Source: an uncultured Desulfosarcina sp.
Lineage (GTDB): Bacteria > Desulfobacterota > Desulfobacteria > Desulfobacterales > Desulfosarcinaceae
Direction: 5' to 3'
NCBI GenBank assembly: GCA_963674945.2
Contig: CAXXWQ010000004.1
Span: 896,001 to 960,000 of the forward strand
DNA: 64,000 nt
A program made the position numbers and the translations under genes. The stretch's first letter is position 1; the number at the start of each line of letters is the position of its first letter. The notes beneath the pieces are model-generated. The model saw nothing but the letters and a program-made list of their open reading frames with translations. It ran no database searches and was not told where the DNA came from. Shown one piece after another: positions 30,712 through 64,000 of the stretch.

Positions 30712-30723
30712 CAAGGAACCGTC

Positions 30724-37467: not shown

Positions 37468-38046
37468 TTACTTCCCTTTTCCCTTACTCTTTATCTTTGG
37501 ATGGTGAGAAAAAAAGGGACCGCCGCATCCCACTAAAAAATCGACGGAACAACGCAGTGTACTAGCCAGCTTAACGATCACATCCGTACTTGCGTGGTAA
37601 CCAGCTTCGATCCTTTTGATTTGATCGACTGGTAGCCCGGAACGTTTGGAAACCTCCGCGATGCTAAATCCCATATCCTCACGCCAATAACGAACCCGTT
37701 TACCCATTTCCGGATCTTTTGCCGCAGGAAGCCCATGGTCTTTGTTGGTTTTGGCATGAAGGTATTTTGGCACATCTTCTTTAACCATCGCATCCGGCAA
37801 ATCAGTCATTTGGTAAAAAACGTGTCCCCATAAAAAATAATCCATCGGTTTACCAGTGGCCACAGATACAGCTAATATGTAATTTAATGAAGGATTTTGG
37901 CTGGCTTTTGCGCTATGAATATTGGATACCACGTTGATCTTCACGCCAACTTTATTCGCCCATTCTGTCCTGGAATAGCCTTCCATTTCCTTCTCAATGC
38001 GTCGAAGGACATCTTTGAAATTGATGTCAATGTGATATTTTTTCAT
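37468..38046 (-). CDS. Repressor with two XRE-type HTH domains
   Basis: SRTEWANKVGV..NPSLNYIL and RVRYWREDMGFSIAEVSKRSG..IEAG; divergent from the integrase. Confidence 0.8.
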   Translation of the reverse strand: MKKYHIDINFKDVLRRIEKEMEGYSRTEWANKVGVKINVVSNIHSAKASQNPSLNYILAVSVATGKPMDYFLWGHVFYQMTDLPDAMVKEDVPKYLHAKTNKDHGLPAAKDPEMGKRVRYWREDMGFSIAEVSKRSGLPVDQIKRIEAGYHASTDVIVKLASTLRCSVDFLVGCGGPFFSHHPKIKSKGKGK

Positions 38047-38135
38047 TTTCTATTATTTTTTTCTTGACATTAAGTTCATTTTTTATGTATATAGTAACCT
38101 ACACACCCTCAATTGAACCTGATCTCCTATTTTCC

Positions 38136-38210
38136 CAGAATTGTCCCTCTTCAGAATTGTCCCTCTTCAGAATTGTCCCTCTTCAGAATTTTCCTAATAT
38201 TCAGAATTCT
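38136..38210 (+). repeat. 16-bp tandem repeat CAGAATTGTCCCTCTT x3 plus two degenerate units
   Basis: Read directly at 38136, 38152 and 38168. Confidence 0.9.
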
Positions 38211-38479
38211 TTTGTTGTTAGCTAATGGTGAAGAAATAAGTTCCTTCTTTTAATTAATAATGTAGCCCTAAAACATGTGTCGACAAACAACATTGACTCA
38301 GCGTTTGATTTTCGATTTGCTGATATCGCTCACGGGAGGTTCATTTCTAAATTACATTAATACGTTAACGGAATCAAACCCTTTTCCATTAAACGTAGAG
38401 CAAATAAAATGAGAGTCGTCGAAAAACTCGAAAAAGAATTCAAAAGAAGGCTGAACTTCAATCCAGCAGGTAGGCTGAT

Positions 38480-38662
38480 TTGACTGAAACAATGCAAATA
38501 CAGAAAGATCTTGAGTCTATCAAAAAGCAACTAGCTACGCTGATGGACCATTTGGGAGTCGGGGCCACTCCTCAACGCTCAGATCGGGATATTCAACAAG
38601 AAATATCCAACCGTTTACATAAACAATTGACCCGTGCTAAAAAGTCGAATGGCCGTGCGTGA
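38480..38662 (+). CDS. Small hypothetical protein overlapping the integrase start
   Basis: 60-aa ORF with TTG start directly upstream of int. Confidence 0.4.
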   Translation: MTETMQIQKDLESIKKQLATLMDHLGVGATPQRSDRDIQQEISNRLHKQLTRAKKSNGRA

Positions 38663-39686
38663 AATAGGGATAGGTAAATTTCAGTTGGATGTAAGCCGTG
38701 GTGTAGGTAAACGCACCCGTATGGTTTTTTATGGTTCAAAAGCTGAAGCTGAGAAAGCTTTCACCTATTTAAAGCGCCAGTGTGACCAGGAAGACGGCAG
38801 GGAAAAGAAATCCCACTACAATATTGGTGATCTAGTCGATGCCCACCTTGAGCATGAAAAGCTGCACAAAGCGAATAAAACATGGGAGGAAAAAAATAGA
38901 ATCATTCGCGGCCCTATAATGTCCATGTTCCGCAAAATGCACTTCGATTTCGTGTACACATCAACGATTGAAGCCTACAAGAAAAAAAGGGTCAACGATA
39001 TTGGCAAAAAGCACAGAGCCATCAACCTTGAACTGATCTATTTTTCAGGTTTCTGGAAATGGGCATATCAAAACGGGTACTGCCGAAACATGACTATTAA
39101 GATGCCAAAGCTCCCATATAAAAGGAAACCACCCAAAGTTTTAACAAAGTCTGAATGTATGGCCATCTTTCACCATGCTGGACCACATCGACAAGCCATG
39201 TTTCTTTGTTTGTACCACGCTGGATTACGGGCCAATGAAGTGATGACTTTGAAACGATATAATGTAGATTTCACGGGTTGTTCGATTACTGTGATCGGCA
39301 AGGGTGACAAGACCAGAACGGTGCCGATGACACAAACGCTATCCGAAGCGATGAAAAAACATTTTTCGTTGATGGACGATCGTATCTCGAATCCAAAAAC
39401 GAAAGTCCTGTGGGATGAAACCCTGGCCTTTCCGTCACTGCGGACCGGCAAGCAATTAACAGACATTCGCCGGCCATTATGGAACGTGATTGAAAAACCC
39501 GATATCTCGAGAAAGGTGATGCCGCATATTTTGCGACACAGCTTTGCAACCCACATGTTTGAAGCCGACGCGGATTTGAGAACGATCCAGGAATTATTGG
39601 GCCATGAAGATATTGCCACAACCCAGGTGTACAAGCACGTTGCCATCAATAAGAAGAGGACAGTCATTGATTTGCTCAAACAATAA
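38649..39686 (+). CDS. Tyrosine recombinase/integrase (intact)
   Basis: AGLRANE (R), GKGDKTR (K), [10 protein letters not shown] (HxxR), LLGH, TTQVY (Y); adjacent to the tRNA-derived att. Confidence 0.93.
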   Translation: MAVREIGIGKFQLDVSRGVGKRTRMVFYGSKAEAEKAFTYLKRQCDQEDGREKKSHYNIGDLVDAHLEHEKLHKANKTWEEKNRIIRGPIMSMFRKMHFDFVYTSTIEAYKKKRVNDIGKKHRAINLELIYFSGFWKWAYQNGYCRNMTIKMPKLPYKRKPPKVLTKSECMAIFHHAGPHRQAMFLCLYHAGLRANEVMTLKRYNVDFTGCSITVIGKGDKTRTVPMTQTLSEAMKKHFSLMDDRISNPKTKVLWDETLAFPSLRTGKQLTDIRRPLWNVIEKPDISRKVMPHILRHSFATHMFEADADLRTIQELLGHEDIATTQVYKHVAINKKRTVIDLLKQ

Positions 39687-39776
39687 CCAATATGACTTTG
39701 GACGGCTGATGACAAGCTTGTCATTTTTTCTTCGATTATTTATAGTTTTTTCGGTTACTTATTCTATAACCACCAA

Positions 39777-39822
39777 ACTCTTAATCAGTAGGTTGAAGGT
39801 TCGATTCCTTCACGGCCCACCA
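39777..39822 (+). mobile_element. att core: 3' half of tRNA-Lys(CTT), copy 1
   Basis: ACTCTTAATCAGTAGGTTGAAGGTTCGATTCCTTCACGGCCCACCA = anticodon loop, T-arm and CCA; no 5' half upstream. Confidence 0.9.
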
Positions 39823-39840
39823 TCATTAATTTTTTGTTTA

Positions 39841-39881
39841 AAAACGGGAAGTTAGGCTGTTCTGCCGCTTCCCGTTTTTTT
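39841..39881 (+). terminator. Intrinsic terminator-like hairpin after att
   Basis: AAAACGGGAAG...CTTCCCGTTTTTTT; related copy at about 51661-51699. Confidence 0.6.
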
Positions 39882-40664
39882 GTATTTTCTTCCATTATCT
39901 TAATCAGTTGGTTGAAGATTTGATTGCTTCACGGTCAACCAAAAAATACTAAGTGAAATTGGTTCTTTATACCTGTTTCGCTTTTTTTTTTAGGGAGTCT
40001 CCATTAAAAAAATGACAAGGAAATGACAAGGTGGGCAACCATGTGATCGAACACAGATTTTCACGTGGAATACAGAAAATAATCGTGAGTTGAAACCAGT
40101 TCCCGAAAAGAGCGCTATTGGCAGCTACAGCTTGCCGAGGTCTTTTAATAATTGCCTGAAGGTAACAAGCACAAACTGCGTGAACTGTTCCATGTTCAGG
40201 CCCTCGAAAGCAGAAGGTGGGCGTTGTTCCGTTACACACAGTACCCCTTCAGAGCTTGTTGTTTCAAAATAGAGACTCAGGTTTTCAATGAACGTTTTAA
40301 ACCAGGCAGGGTATTTTTTCGAGAGCTGGTCAAAATCATCCAAGATGGCAGGCATGATTTGGCCGCTCCCGGTTAAAATGTCAAAAATATAGAAGAGGTC
40401 TTTGGCCTTCTTTTCAGGATCTTTTCTCCTTCTGAAAACCAGGCCCTTGTGAAACATATACGCGGCAGGAGTCGGTATCTTAACAATCAATGGGGATGAT
40501 TGTCCTGCTAGTACAGCATCATCAATCGTCACCTCAGTTACATTTTCAGTTACAATGGATATGAATCTGAGGGCTTCGGCATGAAGGCCTTTTTGAACCT
40601 CCAAAACAATTTCAGGGTTGGACCCTGTTTGATCAACCAAAAATTCGATCTCAACATCCATATT

Positions 40665-43120
40665 CAGAACACTGCATCTCCGGGAAAACTATGTGACACC
40701 TCCGGCATGATTTGAGGTGCTGCAGCCATTTAGTTCGAATATCATTTGCAGCTCGGTACCGGGGTATTTTACCTGCGCACTGTTCAGATGCGCAAACAGT
40801 TGGCAAAGAGCCCGATTGGCCGCTGGGAACGAAGCGCCGTGCAATCGTATATTCAATTGCTGATTTTCAATATCGGGCAGTACATCGCCTTCGGTCTGGA
40901 ACAGTGTCTGGAGAAGACTCCGTGCATCCGACGAGTTTACCGTCGGACCCGTGAGCAACCCAACCATTGCCGTCTCTGCACGATATGCAATCATACGAAC
41001 CGTGTCCATCAGGCGTTTTCTGCCCGGTTGTAAACGTAAAAATTTATCTTTTGCTTCAAGTTCTCCCCACGTGATGTGTTTACTTGTCTGTTTTCGTTTT
41101 TCTTTCAACTCGCTGAGTTGATACTCCATCTTTTCGATTTCTTCTAACAGCTCGGCCTTTTTCTCTATCCACTTCTTAAACTTTACCGGTTTGTCTTCAT
41201 TTTCAGGGTGAATGGTCATCTCGGCAAAACAGGCACGACGATATCGTAGCTTGTTCTGCAACGAATTACGGGATTGATTCAATTGCCGCCAAACGGGGTT
41301 GATTACCCGTTCGGTATCAGGAAATTCAACGACACCATAATCTAAAAGCACATCGATATCAAAATGTTGCATCATATAGTTGAAAAAGTTTTCCTGACAC
41401 CACCGGCTGAACATGCGTGCTGCCAATTGAGTATGCGGCAAATCGAAAGCGGTGCTGATTACGCTGGTCTGGTGTCCGGAATCGGTCAGTTTTCGCACTT
41501 GTCGCATCCATGTTGCACCCTTACCAGATCCCACCAAACTACCCATTTCGCAAAGCCGCATCTTCACCACCTCTTTGTTTGGCATCGCAACTTCATACTC
41601 GGTGAACCAATGCTCCGGCCATGATTCACCAGGATGCTTATGATACGTCATGCAGCCGATTCGATGGCGATCCCACATTTCCTTGAAGAATGCGGGACTA
41701 TATCCTTCCCTGTCGAAAACAAGAACGAACCGGCATAAACATGGGTTCTCTTGTAGTTGCTGCAAACCGGGTTGATTCGGAACGTCTTGCAACAACCGGG
41801 GAACGATATCGTCTCTTAAAACCGCCAATAATCCAGGATCGATCTGCTTTTCGACGACAAAAAAAGGTCGGCCAATCGCATCGTTAACCCAATAGTCGGT
41901 AATGCCCCTCATGCACAATCGTTCCCGGGACACGTAGCGGCGCGGTAGTCGGGTCAATTTTCCATGATAAACACGTACATGCCCGTCAACATAAAGCGCG
42001 CCAACCGATTCGGGCGCCTGTTCCATCCAGTATTTACCGAGGTATGCGGCCCACTTTTCCGCGCCGTGGTCTGCGCTCAACGCATCCATCTTGTAACGCA
42101 AACAGCGAACCTCCGGTGCACGATCCAAGCCCAATAACTTACCAAATTCTCCCGGAGCATGGCCTCGTATTTTTTCTGTCGTCTTGATCCTGCATAAGGC
42201 CATAAACGAAAGCAGCAACAAGACATGAAAGATCGTGTAATAGCCTTTGACTTGGCCGAGGAACTGTTTTGCGCCGGTAAACAACCCGTTTGCCACCAAT
42301 GACGGTATCGCACAAAGAACGCCTGCTTTGGGAACGTCCAGGCATCTGTCAAAACGAACCGGCGCACCAACCATTTTGCCCAATGATGCCAATATGCGTT
42401 CCCCGACTCGGTTGCAAGCCGTCCCCATACCATCGGCAGCAGCCATGTCGACCATGTCCCGATCTGATTTGGTTAGACACGGTTCACCAATCCTTGATTC
42501 GATTAACCGACCATCATCTATAGCTTTGCGAAACGTATCGTATTTAATGCCAAGTTCCAGGGCGGCATCTTTTTTCGAGCACCCTTGATCCAGTAAACGT
42601 TGGGCTTGTTCAAGCACCTCAGGTTTGAAAACCTTGCCGCCGCGTCGTCCCCGCCGCTGAACGAAAAATGCCTCGGCGCCGCCGGACCTGAGTTTGTTCA
42701 CGGATCGGATGACATTGCTCTTGGATACGCCGAATGTGTTTTGGATATCGATCTGGCGGCAATCTCCGGATTCAACCAGTTGGGCTGTTATCATCCGAAA
42801 CATTCGTTGATCGCCTTGTCTGTGAGAATAAATCGGAACTGTCGATAGAAAATAGGTCCATTTCGTATCGTCACGAAATACACTGACAAGCCCGTTGATT
42901 TGTCTTGCACCGCGAGGAATAAGTGGTAGTATCTGTTGAGGCATGGCATCCTTTTCCTTTCATTTATCCGCCAAGATAATAAGGTTAAAGGTGCCATGTT
43001 CATTTTCCGGTTGCAATACCTTACCGGCCTGCTGGATTCAGACTCCTATCTTTCTGTTTTTCAACCACTTACATTATGTTTTGCTTGCCATATGCAACAA
43101 TTAGGAAATCAAGTTTCCTG
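40665..43120 (-). mobile_element. 2,456-bp insertion sequence with 5-bp target duplication
   Basis: ATATT at 40660-64 and 43121-25; imperfect 17-bp IRs CAGAACACTGCATCTCC / CAGGAAACTTGATTTCC. Confidence 0.9.
40689..42944 (-). CDS. Large (751 aa) putative DDE transposase with N-terminal HTHs
   Basis: YVDGH, FDREG and RWCQENFF acidic triad; only long ORF in the IS. Confidence 0.8.
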   Translation of the reverse strand: MPQQILPLIPRGARQINGLVSVFRDDTKWTYFLSTVPIYSHRQGDQRMFRMITAQLVESGDCRQIDIQNTFGVSKSNVIRSVNKLRSGGAEAFFVQRRGRRGGKVFKPEVLEQAQRLLDQGCSKKDAALELGIKYDTFRKAIDDGRLIESRIGEPCLTKSDRDMVDMAAADGMGTACNRVGERILASLGKMVGAPVRFDRCLDVPKAGVLCAIPSLVANGLFTGAKQFLGQVKGYYTIFHVLLLLSFMALCRIKTTEKIRGHAPGEFGKLLGLDRAPEVRCLRYKMDALSADHGAEKWAAYLGKYWMEQAPESVGALYVDGHVRVYHGKLTRLPRRYVSRERLCMRGITDYWVNDAIGRPFFVVEKQIDPGLLAVLRDDIVPRLLQDVPNQPGLQQLQENPCLCRFVLVFDREGYSPAFFKEMWDRHRIGCMTYHKHPGESWPEHWFTEYEVAMPNKEVVKMRLCEMGSLVGSGKGATWMRQVRKLTDSGHQTSVISTAFDLPHTQLAARMFSRWCQENFFNYMMQHFDIDVLLDYGVVEFPDTERVINPVWRQLNQSRNSLQNKLRYRRACFAEMTIHPENEDKPVKFKKWIEKKAELLEEIEKMEYQLSELKEKRKQTSKHITWGELEAKDKFLRLQPGRKRLMDTVRMIAYRAETAMVGLLTGPTVNSSDARSLLQTLFQTEGDVLPDIENQQLNIRLHGASFPAANRALCQLFAHLNSAQVKYPGTELQMIFELNGCSTSNHAGGVT

Positions 43121-43408
43121 ATATTTTCGATGTAGCCTTCGTAATGAATAACAGGAGGGATGTCCCTGCTTTTGAATACGGCTTCAAAACCTGCCTCCAC
43201 CAACACCTGATCAACCGTTTTTTCGCCGATGACCGGAACGGTTCTCGGAACCATCAAATCTATATCACGTGTACGGATTGGTTCATGACTTGTGTTTCCC
43301 AATAAATATCGGTGATAAACGAAAGGCGCCCATCCCCCTCCGATCACTATCACTGGGAGGTAATCTTTGAGTATCCAGAGTGTCTTTAAAAATCCAGAAA
43401 CAAAAAAG

Positions 43409-44521
43409 TCATTCACTCCGATTCACCTTTTCAAATAAAGGTTTAATCTTTTTGTCCATTAGATGCTCAGCCTGCTCCAGACCGCGAATTGGATAGCTAT
43501 GCAGATCCAGATACAGCTGAATATCTGAGACAACTCGAAGGCTATCGATAATTCGGCTGTCATGAAAAACGGAATGCTTGTAATAGGGAAGCATTAAAAT
43601 CAGATTTGCCCCTTGTTCTGCGTTTTCAAGGTTCAGCTGTTTTTCAAAATACTCCAAGGCCATTTTATTGCCGACGTACATATGAATTTCTTGATAAGCA
43701 GCATATGGGGCAACCAGATTGCCGCCGGCCTGAACACTAAGCGCATAATTGACATTGGAAGGTATTTTTAGATTTCGAATCTTATCCAAAACGTCAACCG
43801 AACTCGTTGCCATCAAAAAATAGCCGAAATTTTTGTTTTTATTGAAATTATAATTTCTGGTCCAGTCATCGAGGATGCTTACAGGATCTCGAAGTTTTAT
43901 TTTGGAATGAATCCGTGAAATATATTTTCGTTTTTCAAGCTCTTTTGCCATGCGCGAAACAAAGCCTGGATCCAAATGAACCCTTTGGGCCAACTCCCTG
44001 ACGCCCCACAGATGTCCACCATCTTTAAGAATAGATCGAAGGATGAGACTGGCTTTATCTGAAAACGGCCCCCTGCCCTTCCGTTCTTCCGGAAACTTAT
44101 TTGGGAAACCAGTTCGCTCCACATAGAGGCTTCTAAATTTGATGAACACGTTTCCGGAAAGGTCAACAAAACAAACACCCTGATCCCGACAAATGTTCTG
44201 CCGCTGTTGGCTTAGATAGGGAGCAGCCAAGACCGGCACTGCATCATTAGACGCGTTTGCTATCGTCTTGAGTCTGGATATCTTGTCTTTCAACACTGAA
44301 AGACTGGTTTTCGCCACAATCTCAATAGTCAACTGAAAACGCAAATCACCATACCGGGCTCGAGCAACAAGATCTGGCGAATCGGATTCGTTTGATATCG
44401 CGCCTGACACCATGTTGATTTTCAGATCGTCTAAAGATAGAAGCCCTTCTAAGGATCTTTCCAGCTCTTTTTTTATTTTTTGTTCAGGTCTCATGTTGTC
44501 TACTTTTAGAATGTTGTCCAT
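43409..44521 (-). CDS. AbiEi-like type IV TA antitoxin / HTH regulator (370 aa), copy 1
   Basis: FVDLSGN, WGVRELAQ HTH, VVSDIQLYLDL...RGLEQAE; overlaps the NTase start. True start may be 44494. Confidence 0.75.
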   Translation of the reverse strand: MDNILKVDNMRPEQKIKKELERSLEGLLSLDDLKINMVSGAISNESDSPDLVARARYGDLRFQLTIEIVAKTSLSVLKDKISRLKTIANASNDAVPVLAAPYLSQQRQNICRDQGVCFVDLSGNVFIKFRSLYVERTGFPNKFPEERKGRGPFSDKASLILRSILKDGGHLWGVRELAQRVHLDPGFVSRMAKELEKRKYISRIHSKIKLRDPVSILDDWTRNYNFNKNKNFGYFLMATSSVDVLDKIRNLKIPSNVNYALSVQAGGNLVAPYAAYQEIHMYVGNKMALEYFEKQLNLENAEQGANLILMLPYYKHSVFHDSRIIDSLRVVSDIQLYLDLHSYPIRGLEQAEHLMDKKIKPLFEKVNRSE

Positions 44522-44595
44522 TTGGACAACAAGTTAATTAAAAACAACACTCACGTCAAGAATAAATTTGAAGCAACCATATGGAGAGGTGATCA

Positions 44596-45795
44596 ATGGC
44601 AACGATTAATCGCAAAGAACTCTACAAAAAGGTATGGGAAACGCCCATCACTCGATTGTCAAAGGAATATGGCTTATCTGATGTGGGCTTTGCCAAGATA
44701 TGCAGAAAACACAATATACCCAGGCCGCCACGGGGTTATTGGGCCAGAAAGGCGGCCGGATACAGGGTAAAACAGATCCCCTTGCCATCTGGGAAGAATG
44801 TTACAATTGAAATCAGCCCCAATCCATACATTCAGAAGGCCAATAAAAACAAAGAACTGGTTGCACAGATATCGCCGTCTGAACAGCCAAATGAGGCACC
44901 CATTGTTGTTCCCGACCGATTGACCAATCAGCACCATTTGACCAAACAAACTTCTGAAATCCTGAATGGCCGGCAACCAGACAAAGAAGGGATTGTACTT
45001 CCTACCAAGAAAGGATGCCTTGATATATCGGTTTCGAAAGCAAGCTTGAGACGAGCCCTTCGTATCATGGACACAATCCTTAAAGCCCTTGAGAAAAGGG
45101 AATGTGAAGTATACCTGTCCAAGGGGTACACCAAAACGAAAATCCATAACGTCCCCGTTAGTTTCAAAATCTACGAGAAATTGGTCAATAGGAGAAAAGA
45201 GCCCAAAGAACATAGTCTGGATAGCCGCTACCGGTTTGGGCACAGCAGGTTCATCGAAGAACGTATCCCCTCAGGGGATCTATGTCTCACAATTCACCAG
45301 GCCGATGGCTTTTATATTTACGGTTGTCAGCAAAACTGGAACGACGGGAAAAAATCAAAGCTCGAAGAGCGCATCAATAGTTTCATCGATGGCCTGGTAA
45401 CGGTCGCTGTTGCTAAGATCGCGCGTGACAAAGAAAAGATGGAGGAAGAAAAGCGAAGGATCGAACGGCAAAAAAGACTTGAAGAGGAAAGGGAGATACG
45501 CGCCGTGCTAAGACGCAAGTACATGGAAGAAGAAGCCAGGGTAAATCAATTAATAGCCGAAGCCGAAAATTGGAAAAAGAGCCAAATTCTCCGGGACTAC
45601 ATCGTTGAAATTGAAAGTAGCGCAACTAATGAAAATCTATCGCTTAGCCCCGAGAAGCCGTTAAACGAATGGCTAAAATGGGCCAAGGACCAGGCGGACC
45701 GGCTGGACCCTTTGAAACAAAGCCCGCCATCGATTCTCGACGAGGAATGCCCGCCGGAAGAGAAGCGAAATGAATATTCCTATTACCGATATTAA
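44596..45795 (+). CDS. Conserved hypothetical protein with N-terminal HTH-like motif and C-terminal coiled coil
   Basis: RKELYKKVW..P...LSKEYGLSDVGFAKICRKHNIPRPPRGYW; GGAGAGG RBS. Confidence 0.8.
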   Translation: MATINRKELYKKVWETPITRLSKEYGLSDVGFAKICRKHNIPRPPRGYWARKAAGYRVKQIPLPSGKNVTIEISPNPYIQKANKNKELVAQISPSEQPNEAPIVVPDRLTNQHHLTKQTSEILNGRQPDKEGIVLPTKKGCLDISVSKASLRRALRIMDTILKALEKRECEVYLSKGYTKTKIHNVPVSFKIYEKLVNRRKEPKEHSLDSRYRFGHSRFIEERIPSGDLCLTIHQADGFYIYGCQQNWNDGKKSKLEERINSFIDGLVTVAVAKIARDKEKMEEEKRRIERQKRLEEEREIRAVLRRKYMEEEARVNQLIAEAENWKKSQILRDYIVEIESSATNENLSLSPEKPLNEWLKWAKDQADRLDPLKQSPPSILDEECPPEEKRNEYSYYRY

Positions 45796-45809
45796 ATCAC
45801 GTTTTTGTC

Positions 45810-46991
45810 ATGAAACGAACCGAAACATACGAGGAAATCAAACCCCTGGTCGAGTTGTGTAAATCAGGCAAGCTTTTCGAGGTACAGGAATGGATTGCAT
45901 CTGGAAAACCGGTGAACCCTCCGCCATCGGAATTCGGATATAGAAAGAAAAGCCCTTTAGAAATAGCAATTGAAATGGGATTTCATAGTCTCGTTAAAGT
46001 TTTGCTCGAAGGAGGGGCTGACATCAATGAACCTCGGTATTGGCCATTAGATGAAGCCTTGCATAAACGTCGGTTGGACCTGGTCAAACTGCTTGTCGAG
46101 TACGGCGCTGATATCAATTCCGTCTCAATGGCAACCGTCTTTGAAACTTGGCAGCCCGATATCATGAAATGGTTTATTGAACAAGGCGCTGATGTCGAGA
46201 CCGACAATCCCCTTGCCTATGCCTTTTGTGAAAGGATAAGAACCGCTTTGGGTATATTTAAGAGCTACAGGGATCGGTTTCCCAGCTTCCAAGAACAAGC
46301 AAACATCGCTTTGCGTCATCACTGCAAGGAAGGTAACCTTAAGTGGGCGTCGCTTATGCTCTGGGTTGGAGCGGATCCGGAATCCAAAGGACCTTATTGC
46401 TGGAGCGAAGATCCGGACCCGGAGTTTGATCGAAATGCATTGGAATTGGCAGCTTTCTATGAGCATTTTGAAATTTTCAACCTGAAACCAATTCGTTTGG
46501 ATCCGGCAAAGCCTGAACTGAAAGAGATATTGTTAGAGGCATGTCATGCTAAAAATTCAGACTTTCTCAATAAACTGCTAAAAAAAGGATTCAAGCCATG
46601 TGAATATGAGAACAGCGGAACACCGTTGATACAGGCATTACTTTCCCGCCTGAGCTGGTATTTTGACTTCAATCGTTGGGACACCTGGAGTGATAATCGG
46701 ACTCCCAAAAGGGACAATGACAATGAAAAGGCCCGGGAGAAAATAAAGATGATTCACATGTTGTCGAAGCATGGTGCCAAATGGCTTCCCACTGACCGTT
46801 CAGAAATCGGAGACGCTCGTCGATCATTGCTGAAAATGAAACCAGATTATACTGTCGAGTTCATTTGGATAATGTCCAAATACAATGCCACTAAACGTGA
46901 AAACATCGAGGAGCTTATCCGGACACCTTCAATACGTTCCGTTGTTCATCAACATATGGTAAGGATAAATGAGCTCCTTAATAATTTTTAA
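45810..46991 (+). CDS. Ankyrin-repeat protein
   Basis: SPLEIAIEMG..SLVKVLLEGGADIN, PLDEAL...LVKLLVEYGADIN repeats. Confidence 0.8.
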   Translation: MKRTETYEEIKPLVELCKSGKLFEVQEWIASGKPVNPPPSEFGYRKKSPLEIAIEMGFHSLVKVLLEGGADINEPRYWPLDEALHKRRLDLVKLLVEYGADINSVSMATVFETWQPDIMKWFIEQGADVETDNPLAYAFCERIRTALGIFKSYRDRFPSFQEQANIALRHHCKEGNLKWASLMLWVGADPESKGPYCWSEDPDPEFDRNALELAAFYEHFEIFNLKPIRLDPAKPELKEILLEACHAKNSDFLNKLLKKGFKPCEYENSGTPLIQALLSRLSWYFDFNRWDTWSDNRTPKRDNDNEKAREKIKMIHMLSKHGAKWLPTDRSEIGDARRSLLKMKPDYTVEFIWIMSKYNATKRENIEELIRTPSIRSVVHQHMVRINELLNNF

Positions 46992-55366: not shown

Positions 55367-55521
55367 CCGTGGGCAGGGGCTTATCACCCTGCCTACGTAG
55401 CCATTCTGTCAGCACCGTAGCCCCGCCTTGAGAAAAATCTGCTTACGCACCGTTGCCGAAAGGACACCTTTGCAAGGCGATCGATTCCGTGTCTCATTTT
55501 GGACTTAATAACTGTTGAAAC

Positions 55522-55592: not shown

Positions 55593-55997
55593 ATGGAACA
55601 AACCTGCTTGGCATCGCTCGGATCAGAAAACAACCAAAGCCTGATCGCCCTGTGCAAATCTGGTTTAAGTGCCAAAATATTTGATGAAGTGGCCGATTGT
55701 TTACAGGTGCCGGACATCCGCCTAGCCAACATCATCAATTTAAAAAAAAGCACGCTCATCAGGCGAAAACGTGAAGGTCGGCTAAATTTTGAAGAGTCAG
55801 AACGGCTGTATCGTATCGTTCGACTGTTTAACATGGCTGAAAAAATTTTAGGCTCAGGTGAACATGCGCGGGAATGGCTGAACACACCCTCCAATGATTT
55901 CGAGGGCAAATCACCGCTCGATTATGCGGATAATGAAATCGGTGCAAGGGAGGTTGAGGCCGTATTAGACAGGATCGGTGACGGAGTGATCTTTTGA
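55593..55997 (+). CDS. Xre/MbcA/ParS antitoxin
   Basis: ESERLYR, AREWLNTP...G.SPLD, GAREVE. Confidence 0.9.
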   Translation: MEQTCLASLGSENNQSLIALCKSGLSAKIFDEVADCLQVPDIRLANIINLKKSTLIRRKREGRLNFEESERLYRIVRLFNMAEKILGSGEHAREWLNTPSNDFEGKSPLDYADNEIGAREVEAVLDRIGDGVIF

Positions 55998-56455
55998 TCA
56001 GAGCCTGGCGTCTCGTTGCGGCTACATATGCCGACCGGATCATGTCTGGAGGCGGTGCTTTCCGCCATGGAGGGCGATGGAACAGCCAGGGAAGAGCTGT
56101 GGTTTATATGTCTGAAAGCCTGTCACTCTGCGTTCTTGAGAACCTGGTGCACATGGTAAAACTGCCCGTGATGCGTAGCTTCAAGAGCATATGGGTGGAT
56201 ATCCCCGAATCATTAATTCACGCTTTAGAAAAAAAAGATCTGCCCTCTTCATGGAAAGAATTACCTGCTCCGGAAGCCACTAAAGAGATCGGCGACAAAT
56301 GGTTTGATGCAAAGGTGTCTGCTGTTTTGAAAGTGCCAAGTACTGTTGTTTCGGATGAATGGAACTTTGCACTTAATCCGGCACATCCGGATTTCGAAAA
56401 ATTGGTAATTGGTGAGATCCGCGATTTTGAATTCGATGAACGTCTATATCCATAG
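55994..56455 (+). CDS. RES-domain NAD+-consuming toxin
   Basis: GGRWNS.G...VY.SESLSL..LE, VPS, N..LNP.HPDF. Confidence 0.9.
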   Translation: MIRAWRLVAATYADRIMSGGGAFRHGGRWNSQGRAVVYMSESLSLCVLENLVHMVKLPVMRSFKSIWVDIPESLIHALEKKDLPSSWKELPAPEATKEIGDKWFDAKVSAVLKVPSTVVSDEWNFALNPAHPDFEKLVIGEIRDFEFDERLYP

Positions 56456-56638
56456 ATACTATCACTAATTCAGACAGGCCCGATTATTGGATTTGACTCA
56501 CAATGGAACGAAAAATTACGCTAAACTTATAGATGCCCGGTTGTGGGGTTTGTTTAGATATAGGGAAAAATCCAACAATCTTGTTTCAATCCGCCGGTTC
56601 CGGTCCAGAGCGTCTTTAAAAATCCAGAAACAAAAAAG

Positions 56639-57751
56639 TCATTCACTCCGATTCACCTTTTCAAATAAAGGTTTAATCTTTTTGTCCAATAAATGCTCAG
56701 CCTGCTCCAGACCGCGAATTGGATAGCTATGTAGATCCAGATACAGCTGAATATCTGAGACAACTCGAAGGCTATCGATAATTCGGCTGTCATGAAAAAC
56801 GGAATGCTTGTAATAGGGAAGCATCAAAATCAGATTTGCCCCTTGTTCTGCGTTTTCAAGGTTCATCTGTTTTTCAAAATACTCCAATGCCTTTTCATTG
56901 CCGACGTACATATGAACTTCTTGATAAGCAGCATATGAGGCAACCAGATTGCCGCCGGCCTGAACACTAAGCGCATAATTGACATTGGAAGGTATTTTCA
57001 GATTTCGAATCTTATCCAAAACGTCAACCGAACTCGTTGCCATCAAAAAATAGCTGAAATTTTTGTTTTTATTGAAATTATAATTTCTGGTCCAGTCATC
57101 GAGGATGCCTACAGGATCTCGAAGTTTTATTTTGGAATTAATGCGTGAAATATATTTTCGTTTTTCAAGCTCTTTTGCCATGCGCGAAACAAAACCTGGA
57201 TCCAAATGAACCCTTTGGGCCAACTCCCTGACTCCCCACAGATGCCCCGCATCTTTAAGAATAGATCGAAGGATGAGACTGGCTTTATCTGAAAACGGCC
57301 CCCTGCCCTTCCGTTCTTCCGGAAACTTATTTGGGAAACCAGTTCGCTCCACATAGAGGCTTCTAAATTTGATGAACACGTTTCCGGAAAGGTCAATAAA
57401 ACAAACACCCTGATCCCGACAAATGTTCTGCCGCCGTTGGCTTAAATAAGGAGCAGCCAATACCGGCACTGCATCATTAGACGCGTTTGCTATCGTCTTG
57501 AGTCTGGATATCTTGTCTTTCAACACTGAAAGACTGGTTTTCGCCACAACCTCAATAGTCAACTGAAAACGCAAATCACCATACCGGACTCGAGCAACAA
57601 GATCTGGCGAATCGGCTTCGTTTGATATCGAGTCTGGCACCATGTTGATTTTCAGATCGTCTAAAGATAGAAGCCCTTCTAAGGATCTTTCCAGCTCTTT
57701 TTTTATTTTTTGTTCAGATCTCATGTTGTCTACTTTTAGAATGTTGTCCAT
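56639..57751 (-). CDS. AbiEi-like antitoxin (370 aa), copy 2; partner NTase reduced to ~14 codons
   Basis: Near-identical to 43409-44521; downstream similarity stops at about 56604. Confidence 0.75.
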   Translation of the reverse strand: MDNILKVDNMRSEQKIKKELERSLEGLLSLDDLKINMVPDSISNEADSPDLVARVRYGDLRFQLTIEVVAKTSLSVLKDKISRLKTIANASNDAVPVLAAPYLSQRRQNICRDQGVCFIDLSGNVFIKFRSLYVERTGFPNKFPEERKGRGPFSDKASLILRSILKDAGHLWGVRELAQRVHLDPGFVSRMAKELEKRKYISRINSKIKLRDPVGILDDWTRNYNFNKNKNFSYFLMATSSVDVLDKIRNLKIPSNVNYALSVQAGGNLVASYAAYQEVHMYVGNEKALEYFEKQMNLENAEQGANLILMLPYYKHSVFHDSRIIDSLRVVSDIQLYLDLHSYPIRGLEQAEHLLDKKIKPLFEKVNRSE

Positions 57752-57825
57752 TTGGACAACAAATTAATTAAAAACAACACTCACGTCAAGAATAAATTTG
57801 AAGTAACCATATGGAGAGGTGATCT

Positions 57826-58010
57826 ATGACAACGATTAATCGCAAAGAACTCTATAAAAAGGTATGGGAAGCGCCCATCACTCGATTGTCAAAGGAATAT
57901 GGCTTGTCTGATGTGGGCTTTGCCAAGATATGCAGAAAACACAATATACCACGGCCGCCACGGGGATATTGGGCCAGAAAGGCGGCCGGATACAGGGTAA
58001 AACGGATCCC
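57826..58010 (+). pseudogene. Truncated copy of the 44596-45795 gene
   Basis: First ~62 codons match, then unrelated sequence. Confidence 0.85.
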
Positions 58011-58239
58011 ATTTCTCCGCCAACAGACGGGAGAAAGAAAAGACCGCGCCCCAGCCGTCGGCCGTGCCGCCCTGCCGGCGCTCATCCATGTGCCACATGG
58101 TGAGAGGGTTTCAAATTTGCGTGCCCCCCCGTCTTATCGCGGCGAAGCTGAAAGCGTAGACGGAAGCGACGATAAGGGTGAAGCCGTTGTAGGCTACTGC
58201 GATTCCTTGGTAACAACGATACATCCATTGATATTGATA

Positions 58240-58405
58240 AATGCTGGTGGCTGATAATGTGTAGTAGCCTAGTACAGCGGGACTATTAGTTTCCACGAGT
58301 ACGAATGTGGCTGCCACGTGTTTGCGGATATCCTGGCCGGCTTGCCTGTGCAGATAGCGGTCCAGGACAACTTTGCTGCATGTAAAAACTTTGCGATTGT
58401 GGCTG
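58240..58405 (-). pseudogene. N-terminal fragment of a GNAT (TacT/AtaT-like) toxin
   Basis: HNRKVFTCSKVVLDRYLHRQAGQDIRKHVAATFVL...VLGYYTLSA. Confidence 0.7.
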
Positions 58406-58473
58406 TATTGATCAAACGATGCACATGATACGTCCCCCGTTCTACCCTTTAAATTAGATATGCGATACGGTTA

Positions 58474-58520
58474 CTATTCTGTGCAAATTGGAACCCCATA
58501 TTCCAATTTGCACAGAATAG
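58474..58520. promoter_or_regulatory. Perfect 20-bp inverted repeat immediately upstream of a TTGACA and the ATPase gene
   Basis: CTATTCTGTGCAAATTGGAA-7nt-TTCCAATTTGCACAGAATAG. Confidence 0.7.
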
Positions 58521-58559
58521 CCTTGACAGAGTCTCACCGCTTATTTAATCATGCTGAAT

Positions 58560-59732
58560 ATGAAAGATTATATTCCGCGCCGAATCACCTCTGACATAGA
58601 GCGAAAATTCAAAACCACACCAGCGGTTGCGATTTTGGGACCGCGCCAGTGCGGAAAGACCACTCTTGCCAAGCGAATCCTTTCAACGCTGACATCGTCT
58701 GTTTACCTGGACCTGGAAAGGCGTGCCGATCTTAATAAACTTCGCGACCCGGATGCTTTTTTTGATTTAAACAAAGATCGGCTGATTTGTCTGGATGAAA
58801 TACAGCGCGTGCCGGAGTTGTTTCCGGAAATGCGATCGAGCATCGACAGACAGGATAAACCGGGTCAATTTTTACTTTTGGGTTCGGCTTCTCCCGAGTT
58901 GCTCCAACAAAGCTCCGAGTCCCTTGCCGGGCGAATCTCTTACGTAGAGTTGGCCCCTTTTAGCCTTCAGGAACTTAGCCCGCAGAGAATCGATTTGGAC
59001 TTGATGCGAACCCTCTGGCGAAGGGGCGGTTTTCCCCGCAGCTATCTGGTTGGTGATGAAGATGAAAGCTGGGAATGGCGTCGGGATTTCATCCGTACTT
59101 TTCTTCAAAGAGACATCCCACAACTGGGAATTCGGATACCGCAAAGGCGGCTTGAGCGTTTCTGGACTATGTGCGCTCATATCCACGGTCAGTTGTTGAA
59201 CCGCTCAAAATTGGGGGCGTCATTAGGAGTAAGCCACCATACGATCAATACCTATATCGATTTGCTTGACCAAACCTTTCTGCTGCGTGTGCTTGAGCCC
59301 TACCATGCCAATATAAAAAAACGTTTAATCAAATCGCCGAAAATTTTTTTGCGCGATACAGGCCTTTTACATGCGCTGCTGGACATAAAGAGCCATAATG
59401 ACCTGCTCGGGCATCCGACCTATGGATCGTCCTGGGAGAGCTTTGTCATTGAAAACACGTTAACCTCATCTCCGGAGTGGAAACCCTATTTCTACAGAAG
59501 TGCCGTGGGAGATGAAATTGACCTGTTGCTTCGAAAGGGGCGCCAACGGGTGGCCATTGAAATCAAAGCTTCGACATCCCCTGAGGTGACATCGGGATTC
59601 TGGCGGGCATTGAATGACTTAAACGTTGATAAAGCCATTATTGTAGCACCGGTTGAGTCGTCCTACCCATATAAAGGTGATATCCAAGTCATCCCACCAC
59701 AATCCGTCCGGGAGTACTTGGAATCCATATAA
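58560..59732 (+). CDS. Second AAA_14-DUF4143 ATPase (distant paralogue of 48825)
   Basis: GPRQCGKT, LDEIQR, LLGSAS, RGGFP, KSPKIFLRDTG, EIDL...IEIK. Confidence 0.9.
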   Translation: MKDYIPRRITSDIERKFKTTPAVAILGPRQCGKTTLAKRILSTLTSSVYLDLERRADLNKLRDPDAFFDLNKDRLICLDEIQRVPELFPEMRSSIDRQDKPGQFLLLGSASPELLQQSSESLAGRISYVELAPFSLQELSPQRIDLDLMRTLWRRGGFPRSYLVGDEDESWEWRRDFIRTFLQRDIPQLGIRIPQRRLERFWTMCAHIHGQLLNRSKLGASLGVSHHTINTYIDLLDQTFLLRVLEPYHANIKKRLIKSPKIFLRDTGLLHALLDIKSHNDLLGHPTYGSSWESFVIENTLTSSPEWKPYFYRSAVGDEIDLLLRKGRQRVAIEIKASTSPEVTSGFWRALNDLNVDKAIIVAPVESSYPYKGDIQVIPPQSVREYLESI

Positions 59733-60317
59733 ATCGTCCATTCTGAGAATTCGATGGCTGTCGAACAAGTCCCTAGCTTGTCGGCGCGAGAATAGCGCAG
59801 CCAATTTCCCGGCAGCCAATTCATTGAGATTCAGCACGGGAATTTCCGTTGCTCGCCACGTCCCGACAGCATGAGAATCTCTGATTGTCACTGGCCACAA
59901 TGGAACACGGAACATGAAATTAAGATCTACTTCTAAGTTACCACCCTGGCCAAGAGCGTTTTTATACCGCAACGACCACTTGCCTCCGGCGTGCTCTTCA
60001 GGCATCCGCCTGACAGTGAACCCCTCACGAGCAAAAACTGCCTGAACGGCTTGTTCGACCTTGGGGCGGTCAGCGAGCATGCCATCTCGATCTGCGGCTC
60101 CCACATAGTTCAAATCGATGTCGACAGAAAGCCGGGGTACATCAAAGACAAATAGGTTCAAGGCCGTTCCGCCCTTGAGCACCAGCTTCCCTTTGAGGAA
60201 TGGATGACTCCGCAATGCATCCAACAGCCCCAACAGCTGAGCAACCTTTTCGAGCATATCCGGCCTGAAGCCTGTCGCTTCCGCTTCGGCTGCAAGCTTC
60301 TCGGGAGAAATCTTCAT
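59727..60317 (-). pseudogene. AbiEii nucleotidyltransferase toxin, probably C-terminally truncated
   Basis: LKGGTALN, RLSVDIDL, GKLAALFSR..ARDLFD, then the frame runs antisense into the ATPase 3' end. Confidence 0.75.
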
Positions 60318-61120
60318 GACACCTCTCCCCATGTTCGTCCGAGGACTTCGCTTGGGACCACCAAGTTCCATTCCGACACGAATCGACCAGATTTCCGCTT
60401 GGAACGGTTCAGGTAATGAGGCTGCCTTGGACGCAGGTCGCGAAGCACATTAAGATGTCGGTCATCAACCATCAATGTTTCGCGGTGTTGATCGAGAAAA
60501 AACCCCACTTTTGCCCCGGTGGTCGAATTTCCAAGCAGGAGCGCGTATTCCACGACCTTATCGAGGTCGAAGAATTCGACGGACTCCAGCGACCGCCATA
60601 TTTCCTCCCAACTTCCTGAGAGGTCTGGACGATCAAGCACATCGACCAAGGTCCGTTCCAGGGTCGTAACCCTCAATTCCAGGCCAGATCGCTCTGCGGC
60701 CGAAACACCAAAATTTTCTTTGCCAAAACGGACAAGCGCTTGACGAAACCTCGCTCCCCGGAAAACGTACGCTCGAAAATTCAAAGATCCAAGCGGACGG
60801 GATGCCGAGTAGACAAAGTGTGTATGAACCGAGTAAGCCTTGCCGTAAAATTCAAGCGCGGTGTAGTGCGACAGCACTGCATCCGGTGTTAACTTCACGG
60901 CTACGAGAAAAGGGTCGATAGGATATGAACCGGGATCGGCTCCCGGGGGAATAACGGCATACAACCCTCGTCGCACCAGGACAATCCGACCAACCTTCCG
61001 GTGATAGGCCAAAAATGACTCCTGCGTTCGTCCGCGGACCTCGCCCAGAGACGATAAATGACCAGCCAACTCTTTTCCGGTAAAAACCGGATGCTTTCGG
61101 AAAAACTCATCATGTTTCAT
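60314..61120 (-). CDS. AbiEi antitoxin (268 aa), copy 2
   Basis: Near-identical to 47780-48586. Confidence 0.85.
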   Translation of the reverse strand: MKHDEFFRKHPVFTGKELAGHLSSLGEVRGRTQESFLAYHRKVGRIVLVRRGLYAVIPPGADPGSYPIDPFLVAVKLTPDAVLSHYTALEFYGKAYSVHTHFVYSASRPLGSLNFRAYVFRGARFRQALVRFGKENFGVSAAERSGLELRVTTLERTLVDVLDRPDLSGSWEEIWRSLESVEFFDLDKVVEYALLLGNSTTGAKVGFFLDQHRETLMVDDRHLNVLRDLRPRQPHYLNRSKRKSGRFVSEWNLVVPSEVLGRTWGEVS

Positions 61121-61751
61121 CGTCGGCGTCCTTGACTTTGTTTCATGTTACCCATAAAAATTCCATGGGTTTCATAATTAAATGTCAAGTAAAAGCCTCG
61201 GTCCAATCTATCCAACCGACTTGACAGATTAACACAGAACCCATATCTAATTATGGGTTTCGCATGTGCGTGTCAAGAGCTAAATGAGGAAATAGGGGGA
61301 AGTCGGGTTTGTGGGGAAATCTGAAGGAAATCTGATCAGCTTCCAAAGCTGGGGTTTTTTAATGTGAATACATGTCCGATTATCGCAAATGATTGGCCTA
61401 ATAATGAGCGACCCTTGCGTTGGACAAACACACATTATAGGTCGTGCTTACCTAAACTAAAAAGTACCGGTGATAGAATCAATGGTCCGCCACTGGCCAT
61501 GACTCCTATTGCGGTTTCGTTCGGCAAACTTGTTGTTTCCAAAGGGAAACCGGGGCCGGGACCATCTTGAAGGATACAGATTCGAATTGATTGTTTGAGG
61601 AGGCATGAAAACATAGACCTGCCTATTATGGTGTCAGCTGCGGTCTGAAGATGCATCAAAGCTGGCGATTTAAAAATGTTCAATGATTATGCCGAGAAGT
61701 TTGGTCACCCGAGCCGTTTTTTTACGACTCGGGCGACTTTTCACGGCGGTT

Positions 61752-62507
61752 TTATCCTTCGATTTTCTCTTTCATACGATAGCTTTTCCCTTCGATGAGA
61801 ACGGTTTCGGCATGGTGCAACAGCCTGTCGAGGATAGCGGAAGTCAGCGTACTGTCGTTGTTAAAGATTTCCGGCCAGTCTTTGAAAGCTCGGTTGGACG
61901 TGATTGCCAGCGCCCCTTGCTCGTAGCGCCGACTGATGACCTGGAACAATAGATCCGCGCCGGCCTTGTCGATGGGCAGAAAGCCCAATTCGTCGAGGAT
62001 CAGAAGTGAGGGACGGGTATATTTTTTCAATTCCTGTTTCATCCGTCCCGCGGCCTGGGCAGCCGAGAGGGTGTTGATCACATCGATGGCCGTGGCAAAC
62101 AAAACCGTATATCCCGCAAGACAAGCCTCGTAACCCAAGGCGGATACCAGATGGGTTTTGCCCAGGCCCACACCGCCCAGGAAAATGATATTGGCCGGTT
62201 GTTTGACAAATTGCAACCTGAACATTTGCTGAACTTGAAGGCGGTTGATCTTCTTAGGCCAGGTCCAATCGAATGCGTCCAGCGTTTTAACCACCGGAAA
62301 ACGTGCCTGGTTAATACGGCGTTTGGTGGAACGATCTTTTCTCAAGGCCGCTTCGCCATCGGCCAGTTTTTCCAAATAGTCCTCATGGGACCAGTTGTTT
62401 TTGGCGGCCTGTTTTGCCATTTGGTGATGTTGTTCACGCATGAACGGCAGTTTCAAATATTTGAGATGACAGTCAAGGGGATGCTCCGGGAATTGCTTGT
62501 CGGTCAT
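61752..62507 (-). CDS. istB: IS21 helper ATPase IstB
   Basis: GGVGLGKTHL, LILDELGF, RRYEQG, AILDRLLHH, GKSYR. Confidence 0.95.
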   Translation of the reverse strand: MTDKQFPEHPLDCHLKYLKLPFMREQHHQMAKQAAKNNWSHEDYLEKLADGEAALRKDRSTKRRINQARFPVVKTLDAFDWTWPKKINRLQVQQMFRLQFVKQPANIIFLGGVGLGKTHLVSALGYEACLAGYTVLFATAIDVINTLSAAQAAGRMKQELKKYTRPSLLILDELGFLPIDKAGADLLFQVISRRYEQGALAITSNRAFKDWPEIFNNDSTLTSAILDRLLHHAETVLIEGKSYRMKEKIEG

Positions 62508-63970
62508 GCGTCCTCCTTTTGGTAGATGGTCAGATCGGGCGATTGTACCGTCAACTCCAATAGATCCTCACGGCGGGTCAGATGCAAGGCGCCGGGTTCG
62601 GGCAGGCAACGGGTGCGCTGTTCGAGCAGATTGGCGATATACTCGCAGGAAAAGGCTTGGAAAACGAAGGCATCCTCCATTGCCCTGGCAACGGCCTCGG
62701 GGCCGTGAATTTCGCTTAGGGCGACGATTTTCTGCACATGATGATAGGGGTTCATGCGTCGCTGTTCGAGCTTTCGATAATATTGTTCGGATTTTGGCGA
62801 CAGGGATAAAAACCGCATGACGATCTTCTTTTCGCGGGCCTTTTTCCGCCATAGCAACAACTGCCTGGGATGATCCGGGTCCTCGAAGTCCTGGTGGCGG
62901 TCATAACTTCTCGCATGGCGAGCAATCAATTTGTTGTCGTGATAAAGACAAAGCCGGTCAGGATAGGTTTTTAGGGTCAGCCGGCGTCCGGCATACTCGG
63001 CCAGCACCGAGTAGCGGTTTGTATCGAGCGTTACGCGGAACTGGCTCGAAGCCCGGACCTGGGAAACGGTAGTGATGTCGAAACGATGCCTCGGCAAAGG
63101 GTTTAAAACAGATCGCTCTTTTTCGAACCGTTCGATGGGTTTTTCGTGGGTTTCGCCATGAATACGCGGGTTGGCCACCGAATCGATCCAGTACCTGGCT
63201 GCCGGATGAATCGAAGGAAAATCGGGAATGTCCAATCCGGCCAGAAAGTTCTTTTTCACATAGCCGACGCCGTTTTCCACGCGCCCTTTTTCATTGCCTT
63301 TGCCTACGTTGCAAGCCGCTATGTTAAATCCGTAGTAATTGGCAAAATCCAGGTACTTGGGATTGAAAACCGGGACCATACCGATAATTCTTTTGAGAAC
63401 GGCGCTTTTGAGATTGTCCACCATGATTTTGCGGGGCACCCCGCCGAAGTACTCAAAGGCGTTTTGATGGCATCCCAGAAAATGCTCCATGGTTTGGGAG
63501 ACGGTGAACTCCACATACATCAAGCGGCTATGGCAAAGCACCATTACGAAAAAACTGAGCCGTCTGCGTGTATTGCCGACATTGACGGAACCATAGGATC
63601 CCCAATCGACTTGGGCACATTCGCCCGGAGCGAACGACAGGGTGAGATATGCACTGGTCTTGGGCGGCCTGACCTTTCTGACGTAGTCCTTGACGATGGA
63701 ATAGCGGCCTGTAAAACCCTTCTCCAGGATACGTTGAAAGATCTGGGTGGCGGTGTAGGGATGGGCTTCGAGCGATCGAACGATTTCTTGTTTGAAGGGA
63801 TCGAGCTTGCTGGTGCGCGAAGTGCTTTGACGAGGTTTGAAGTGGGCTTCGCCAAGCCATTTGCGGACCGTTCTCACGTCCATTGAAAGCTCTTGGGCGA
63901 TCTGCGGGGCGGTCAATCCATCGCTTGTTCTCAGGTGGTTGATTTTGCAGTAAAGGGCATAATCGATCAT
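62504..63970 (-). CDS. istA: IS21 transposase IstA
   Basis: AQVDWG, VDNLKS, KGRVENGVGYVK. Confidence 0.95.
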   Translation of the reverse strand: MIDYALYCKINHLRTSDGLTAPQIAQELSMDVRTVRKWLGEAHFKPRQSTSRTSKLDPFKQEIVRSLEAHPYTATQIFQRILEKGFTGRYSIVKDYVRKVRPPKTSAYLTLSFAPGECAQVDWGSYGSVNVGNTRRRLSFFVMVLCHSRLMYVEFTVSQTMEHFLGCHQNAFEYFGGVPRKIMVDNLKSAVLKRIIGMVPVFNPKYLDFANYYGFNIAACNVGKGNEKGRVENGVGYVKKNFLAGLDIPDFPSIHPAARYWIDSVANPRIHGETHEKPIERFEKERSVLNPLPRHRFDITTVSQVRASSQFRVTLDTNRYSVLAEYAGRRLTLKTYPDRLCLYHDNKLIARHARSYDRHQDFEDPDHPRQLLLWRKKAREKKIVMRFLSLSPKSEQYYRKLEQRRMNPYHHVQKIVALSEIHGPEAVARAMEDAFVFQAFSCEYIANLLEQRTRCLPEPGALHLTRREDLLELTVQSPDLTIYQKEDA

Positions 63971-64000
63971 GGCCGGCCCTCCCCGATGCGCTTGAAGATC

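Follow-up and report, generated by a model that had tools for sequence, protein, structure and literature searches.

The window described here is a stretch of 64,000 nucleotides from an uncultured Desulfosarcina sp. (genome G000, contig C4, positions 896001-960000, so that a C4 coordinate equals the window position plus 896000), and its right part carries two units, A and B, rich in toxin-antitoxin (TA) genes, which stand in tandem behind an integrative and conjugative element (ICE) at tRNA-Lys(CTT). The ICE ends in a module of repressor, integrase and attachment (att) site. Its xre1 gene (37468..38046, −) encodes an intact XRE/HTH_3 repressor of 192 aa, and int1 (38649..39686, +) a full-length tyrosine integrase of 345 aa with the catalytic residues R-K-HxxR-H-Y present, the only full-length integrase of its type in the genome. 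The palindrome ATGACAAGCTTGTCAT (39709..39724), a predicted integrase arm site, is found in each of the three modules of this genome, 68 bp ahead of the core, and att core 1 (39777..39822, +) is identical in 46 of 46 bases to the 3' end of tRNA-Lys(CTT). Self-comparison confirmed the claim of an earlier, sequence-only note that the module (37468-39822) recurs at about 50027-51639, with the cores 11,817 bp apart; this second module (50027..51639, +) consists of a frameshifted xre2, an integrase remnant that has lost two thirds of the protein from the N terminus along with the first catalytic Arg, the arm palindrome and exact core 2 (51594-51639). Further modules, which the note would have sought to the right, amount to one: an intact xre3 (182 aa, 84% identical to xre1), an integrase remnant that combines the 5' deletion of module 2 with loss of the His/Tyr end, and exact core 3, which ends at C4:963174 (window-equivalent 67174). 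Beyond this third module the genome showed no other xre, no other close copy of the integrase and no other core. Cores 1, 2 and 3 all equal the last 46 bases of the tRNA gene. As remnants 2 and 3 have in common one 5' deletion and an xis-like start, both missing from module 1, they likely come from a sister ICE and spread after the integrase had been lost.

The intact tRNA-Lys(CTT), expected to the left by the same note, is present at C4:778889-778965, the single copy in the genome, 156,857 bp left of core 1. The first gene after it is HTH/replication-initiator-like (an Atlas lead), and downstream lie TraL, E, K, B, V, C, U, TrbC, TraF, H and G, a coupling protein and ParAB, an F-type tra cluster, followed by SSB, RepB primase, DUF932, RadC and an Integrase_1 protein; TraN was not found in the island. 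The tRNA gene and the F-type cluster to the left identify the first module as the right-hand end of an ICE, for which integrase, attL and attR, and a type IV secretion system with VirB4 and coupling protein are all present. Positions 1..39822 (+) are thus the right-hand 40 kb of a 156,857-bp ICE whose attL is tRNA-Lys(CTT), with metabolic and stress cargo, and the tra genes sit 100-115 kb left of the window. The earlier statement that no phage or conjugation genes are visible therefore holds for the open reading frames (ORFs) scanned between 37 and 64 kb (Pfam, whose scan took in 45 ORFs of 28-64 kb, and 12 ORFs compared with PHROGs), whereas tra genes belong to the same island further left. 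Neither the whole window nor its 36.5-64 kb part has an RNA gene by ARAGORN and Rfam. The ICE backbone is common to two relatives, G007 and G016, at 71-92% identity, and its left end also occurs in G024 and G004. Its traG is split by the same 2.46-kb insertion sequence (IS) that struck unit A, so that transfer is probably blocked in this strain.

Unit A (11.8 kb) begins with T1 (40125..43416, −), an NTP_transf_8 nucleotidyltransferase toxin of a type IV TA system, split by the 2,461-bp IS (40660-43120; PF21804, Transposase_29, transposase of 751 aa). Shared block 1 (43374..44783, −) comprises the first 43 bp of T1, the AbiEi_2 antitoxin A1 (43409-44521, −, 370 aa) and the first 187 bp of gene X. 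Gene X (44596-45795, 399 aa, N-terminally HTH-like) and an ankyrin-repeat gene (393 aa) fill 44596..46991 (+), and a BrnT toxin/CopG-RHH antitoxin operon with open frames follows (47047..47628, −). Shared block 2 (47723..48781, −) holds the AbiEi antitoxin A2 (47780-48586) and the first 38 codons of an AbiEii toxin (T2), and ATPase-1 (48825..49985, +; AAA_14+DUF4143, a PADLOC candidate for PDC-S01) precedes the xre of module 2. The order is hence T1 (IS-split), A1, X, ankyrin, BrnT/CopG, T2 stub, A2, ATPase-1, xre.

Unit B opens with its own left end (51640..51859, +; spacer, degenerate core and left-end sequence) and a scrap that we take to be LysR-type, and continues with an IS66 element bearing a DruA-domain passenger (52037..55466, +), an Xre/MbcA antitoxin and RES toxin pair with open frames (55593..56455, +) and block 1 (56604..58013, −), in which A1 is an orphan and T1 and X are both cut to stubs. 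The interval 58240..59732 contains an N-terminal relic (−, ~58240-58450), presumably of a GNAT toxin, for which Pfam gave no match, and ATPase-2 (58551-59732, +, PDC-S01-like). An AbiEii lacking its C-terminal third, the homology of which stops beside the stop codon of ATPase-2, and the AbiEi of block 2 follow (59734..61315, −), and then an IS21-family element (istA/istB; 61663..64000, −) that extends to C4:960987. Past the window, unit B and its border span C4:961037-963293, with a BrnT/CopG copy of 96% identity and open frames (C4:961037-961618, window-equivalent 65037-65618), xre3, the integrase remnant, core 3, spacer, degenerate core and the left end of a relic unit C. The order is thus scrap, IS66, Xre/RES, T1 stub, A1, X stub, GNAT stub, ATPase-2, truncated T2, A2, IS21, BrnT/CopG, xre. 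With the end of the third module at 67174, outside the window, unit B measures 15,535 bp. The units include 9.2 kb of IS DNA (the 2,461-bp IS, IS66 of 3,430 bp and IS21 of 3,325 bp, with 28, 5 and 1 near-full copies in the genome, respectively), and their IS-free lengths are 9,356 and 8,780 bp. Related, integrase-less units are indeed stacked at tRNA-Lys, as had been proposed. IS-free forms occur in metagenomes, an IS66-free version of the left part of unit B in run X1 (another study, 90% threshold) and, in run X20 (possibly the source sample), a joint across T1 that has no IS; late IS insertion is therefore likely, and other strains hold related units.

The repeat copies are 80-97% identical with private indels, over alignments of 0.6-1.4 kb that exceed chance. 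The two shared blocks lie in the same order in both units, as the earlier note said, at 96.8% (43374-44783 and 56604-58013) and 96.4% (47723-48781 and 60257-61315) identity, and Pfam bore out the cargo it had named (ankyrin, BrnT/CopG, Xre-RES and two AAA_14+DUF4143 ATPases). Its view that the genes between the blocks are unit-specific survives insofar as the contents differ, but both units have BrnT/CopG, and neither ATPase-1 nor Xre-RES stands between the blocks, the former following block 2 and the latter preceding block 1. Among the ORFs of the units no tra or relaxase family was found. All four type IV (AbiE-type) toxins are broken, being IS-split or truncated, while all four antitoxins are open, which does not fit the notion of a working TA/anti-phage platform. 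What defence value the units may have would be limited to the two ATPases, both of which match PDC-S01 in PADLOC, a weak match of the ankyrin gene and the two type II TA pairs, whose frames are open. Gene X belongs to no known family: it matches nothing informative in PADLOC, Pfam, PHROG or solved structures, and its Atlas neighbours are all unnamed. The family itself is large (12,341 representatives at E<=1e-3 and 1,140 at 1e-30), with conserved W/P/R/D residues, and gene X adjoins ankyrin genes both here and in G060.

The left ends of the units carry a feature that had gone unmentioned, a degenerate second core about 75 bp after every exact core. Behind core 1 a spacer of ~75 bp with a hairpin and a T run leads to a degenerate core that differs at 8 of 46 positions (39823..39941, +), and this relic of spacer plus degenerate core, similar to a micro-CIME (CIME, cis-mobilizable element), follows all three exact cores at 88-91% identity; two of the degenerate cores have 8 and 6 differences in 46 and the third has one extra base. 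Because the degenerate cores have changes in common, the compound left end likely arose once. Next comes a left end of the ICE family (39942..40043, +) with direct repeats of ATGACAAG, which matches the sequence after the intact tRNA in this genome and in four relatives; the left ends of the units are about 80-88% identical to the ICE attL family. Among 31 genus genomes the spacer was found in one, G000 itself. A terminator scan left the spacer hairpin unscored, its loop being beyond the size limit of the scan, and a candidate XerD-like site in the spacer was dropped as no XerC partner was found by eye. Elsewhere, tRNA-Lys(CTT) variants with compensatory T-stem changes occur at L027:6636-6712, L028:7711-7787 and L031:4708-4784, in genomes whose attR cores keep the other form.

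The spacing of these elements bears on how the units could leave the chromosome. The distance of the ATGACAAG repeats, putative integrase arm sites, is 72 bp to the core at the ICE attL, 67-71 bp to the degenerate cores and 186-193 bp to the exact ones, so that each unit attL has the arm repeats with correct spacing only to a degenerate core. Modules 2 and 3 have kept at attR the exact 46-bp core with the palindrome 68 bp upstream. If the repeats are arm sites, attR2 and attR3 would therefore be usable partners for the ICE attL, and excision of A or B alone would be less likely, as their left arms are correctly spaced only from the degenerate cores. The units depend, as the note held, on one intact integrase, only int1 being full length, though it belongs to the 156,857-bp ICE; the att anatomy would favour excision together with the ICE, in cis, over independent excision of a unit and thus over service in trans.

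Searches of relatives by DNA scored the top candidates per genome, and absence below means not found with that query. Block 2 was found in 3 of 30 genus genomes, and as its AbiEii-AbiEi pair directly abuts xre-integrase in G004 and G007 (the integrase of G004 being a different one), block 2 is right-end ICE backbone. At L070:8447-13288 in G004 an intact AbiEii-AbiEi-xre stands next to an integrase that is unrelated (21% identity), and a second remnant of xre lies upstream; this is a module exchange and probably another tandem relic. In G007 an attR (L016:18225) is immediately followed by another ICE-type left end, tandem accretion there also. A1 has homologues in 9 of the 64 genomes of the family. 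Eight of the 10 places outside G000 were examined: T1 adjoins in seven, and X, A2, xre or integrase is near in none. X has a homologue in one of the 64, beside an ankyrin fragment and restriction/helicase genes. The integrase search gave loci in 2 of 40 relatives, 2 loci (the two closest, at 90% and 84% identity) from 33 candidate stretches of genome_contigs and 3 of 58 from metagenome_contigs, and no unit like A or B was present in the examined flanks, several of which are short contigs. The native downstream flank seen in relatives, with a gene we take to be rpsF, sits on contig C3 in G000, without a core.

Based on these data we propose that units A and B are decayed ICE derivatives, CIMEs, in tandem accretion behind the ICE, leaving the chromosome mainly together with it, and we regard this account as probable. 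It builds on the ICE attL at the tRNA, the tra backbone, the three attR-type ends, the integrase deletion common to the units and the broken toxins. The units likely derive from an ICE by deletion, have neither a functional integrase nor recognisable conjugation or mobilisation genes, and have kept attR, as is characteristic of CIMEs. An earlier ICE of the same family would have been displaced from the tRNA by another insert, which then shrank to the ~120-bp relic of spacer and now degenerate core. From the displaced ICE, tra and the greater part of int may have gone while the TA-rich region beside xre stayed, and site-specific or RecA recombination would have made tandem copies of the resulting unit (A, B and relic C), which diverged by about 10%. 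Deletions within and between neighbouring copies, along with IS insertions, could then have produced the differing gene orders of today. The block ends that cut through genes, as deletions do, fit this, and so does a further copy of T1, X and ankyrin at window-equivalent 103221-103506, which has shrunk to three fused scraps of 83-116 bp. The present ICE would have integrated last, at the tRNA and upstream of the stack, and its integrase could pair attL with core 1, 2 or 3 to excise the ICE, ICE+A or ICE+A+B, while addiction to the intact pairs BrnT/CopG and Xre-RES may keep the units in place.

Several observations weigh against this proposal or leave it less sharp. The part played by the ATGACAAG repeats presupposes binding of the integrase, which we infer from sequence. 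The cores are conserved above their flanks, with a chance of 0.1-1.3% per core at the flank divergence; either recent use or gene conversion would explain this, and it speaks for neither cis nor trans. No excision product was seen in the contigs, which could not reveal one because cores and arms 1 and 2 are identical. BrnT/CopG has identical sharp ends in two contexts, which looks cassette-like, and a contig of the X1 metagenome leaves the ankyrin gene exactly at 47046, the BrnT/CopG boundary, although one novel joint in unit A explains this boundary as well as a cassette does. Right of core 3 the left end of unit C gives way to unrelated cargo; since relic unit C is without a right end and the native downstream flank lies on another contig, the history is incomplete. 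A genome-wide search with the relaxase families PF07514, PF03432, PF08751, PF13814 and PF03389 gave no match on contig C4, and the ICE integrase may be impaired by private amino-acid changes in its C-terminal tract.

This last point leads to the alternative that the units are inert, a dead element duplicated by homologous recombination, with no excision even in cis because int1 itself has been damaged by gene conversion. The 3' part of int1, ~520 bp through the core (39302-39822), is 99-100% identical to module 2 (51119-51639) while the flanks are 82-91% identical, and as the homogenised tract stops exactly at the att core it is possible that the int1 C-terminus was taken from the module-2 pseudogene. 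Changes beside the catalytic motifs of int1 are missing from module 3 and from two orthologues, traG is disrupted and deletions and IS insertions are many. Yet int1 retains all catalytic residues, and the excess of amino-acid changes is not significant (10 private replacement against 9 silent in the last 127 codons, 11 against 22 in the 5' part; p 0.12-0.24). Core 3 is exact though its flank is 86% identical, and between the units synonymous changes exceed replacements in A2 (17:12 codons) and CopG (7:5 codons). We consider inertness unlikely.

Similarly unlikely is that the units act as regulatory satellites, in which the four orphan AbiEi antitoxins, xre3 and the two type II TA pairs would damp excision of the ICE and disarm the AbiE toxins of incoming sister ICEs, the units hitch-hiking in cis and their copies recombining to shuffle TA and PDC-S01 modules; the idea is motivated by the restraint of ICE excision that AbiEi can exert according to PMC11062541. 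Were it true that orphan antitoxins and a second repressor control the ICE, decayed elements would gain a regulatory role.

More doubtful still is an active non-autonomous family, singly excised and reintegrated in trans by the ICE integrase, with slots in a fixed scaffold swapped as cassettes, the reading closest to the earlier note. It would account for the similar IS-free sizes, the common integrase deletion as that of a defective unit that spread after its integrase was lost, the different contents of the three intervals, the sharp ends of BrnT/CopG at two places, the exact cores and the PDC-S01 matches of both ATPases. Against it stand the left arms mis-spaced from the exact cores and the degenerate cores with 6-8 differences, the damage to all four type IV toxins, and the finding of the spacer in this genome alone among 31 of the genus. 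A fixed scaffold is not supported: block 1 ends inside T1 and X and the left end of block 2 inside T2, and no common recombination site was detected at the block or cassette ends (14 junction windows, 84 pairs, mean similarity 8.0, maximum 11, against a mean of 7.8 and a 99th percentile of 12 for random cargo). Nor was the combination of block 1 and block 2 found in relatives, where A1 travels apart from X, A2, xre and integrase at all eight loci and X itself was found in one of 64 genomes. An assembly artefact from mis-joined reads, which the note had named as what would undo its proposal and to which 5.7% contamination, the numerous IS copies, a second, diverged integrase allele in run X20 and the lack of a single contig spanning the whole region might point, is scarcely credible, since the copies diverge by 3-20% with private indels and mismatch-free X20 contigs bridge 39904-40599, 48717-50460 and 55441-56641, and pieces of both units recur in X1, a separate study. 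The second allele, with many differences at window 38874-39035, is accompanied by a second attL-type joint in runs X20 and X22 (the latter, like X23, of patchy cover), and it is that of another related ICE or strain in the sample. The comparison with sequencing runs covered four of 23 listed runs.

The ICE carries features of its own. The F-type family at tRNA-Lys(CTT) (G000:C4:778889-819822, L004-L006), shared with G007 and G016, is apparently undescribed, and a 320-aa Integrase_1/Phage_int_SAM_2 gene closes the common backbone in all three genomes. Window 1-25600 contains diverged paralogous sets of aldehyde dehydrogenase, pyruvate kinase and PfkB kinase genes (78-85% DNA identity) as well as NhaA, GroEL, a DnaJ-type protein and PtsP, and left of the window lie an alternate F1F0 ATPase operon, FtsH/HflKC and Hsp20. 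A fused scrap inside the ICE (G000:C4:846431-846594, L007) matches window 37178-37257 and the 3' end of the ankyrin gene (46915-47002). Both this ICE family and the large, unannotated family of gene X are side leads of modest weight.

On this reading the process at the locus is a known one, the pile-up and decay of genomic islands, and a new cassette system is not supported. In the open-access literature we found no description of ICEs of Desulfosarcina, of TA-rich CIME stacks or of ICE-CIME tandem accretion in sulfate reducers; the locus offers a clean example of such accretion in a sulfate reducer and shows how tandem copies and deletions can create what looks like a scaffold with slots. In Streptococcus, according to PMC5704250 and PMC7563491, CIMEs are decayed elements without integration or transfer genes that keep their att sites and follow an ICE in tandem at a gene's 3' end, with sizes of 1.2-13 kb with cargo and of 130-220 bp for microCIMEs without, the most decayed elements lying farthest from the target gene; 215 CIMEs at tRNA-Lys(CTT) in S. 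agalactiae are cited in PMC7563491. The present stack resembles these in its order of target gene, ICE and decayed units, in the sizes and in its gene-less micro-element, the spacer relic of ~120 bp being slightly under the published range. It differs in the sulfate-reducing host and the F-type ICE, in holding two copies and a relic third of one CIME lineage, in keeping xre and int remnants with one repressor intact, in a cargo that is almost entirely TA and defence genes, and in left ends compounded of an exact and a degenerate core.

Some ICEs carry an AbiE type IV TA system (for AbiE see PMC3985639) close to their integration module. In one of them, ICESsuHN105 of S. suis, excision is damped by the antitoxins AbiEi and SezA, which bind at oriT and attL (PMC11062541). 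AbiEi/AbiEii is likewise carried on an ICE here; unlike in ICESsuHN105, the toxins in the units are broken with the antitoxins left alone. [quoted passage not shown] The units are like IMEs and tandem SGI1 arrays (PMC5704250) in being small, non-autonomous, helper-dependent and in tandem at one att site, but neither integrase remnant retains the full catalytic set, so that the functional integrase of an IME is missing, and no relaxase is recognisable. Integrons and their cassette arrays are TA-rich and variable in gene order beside a tyrosine recombinase; here, by contrast, no recombination site is repeated at gene boundaries, the boundaries cut genes, and the integrase is of the island type that acts with tRNA att cores.

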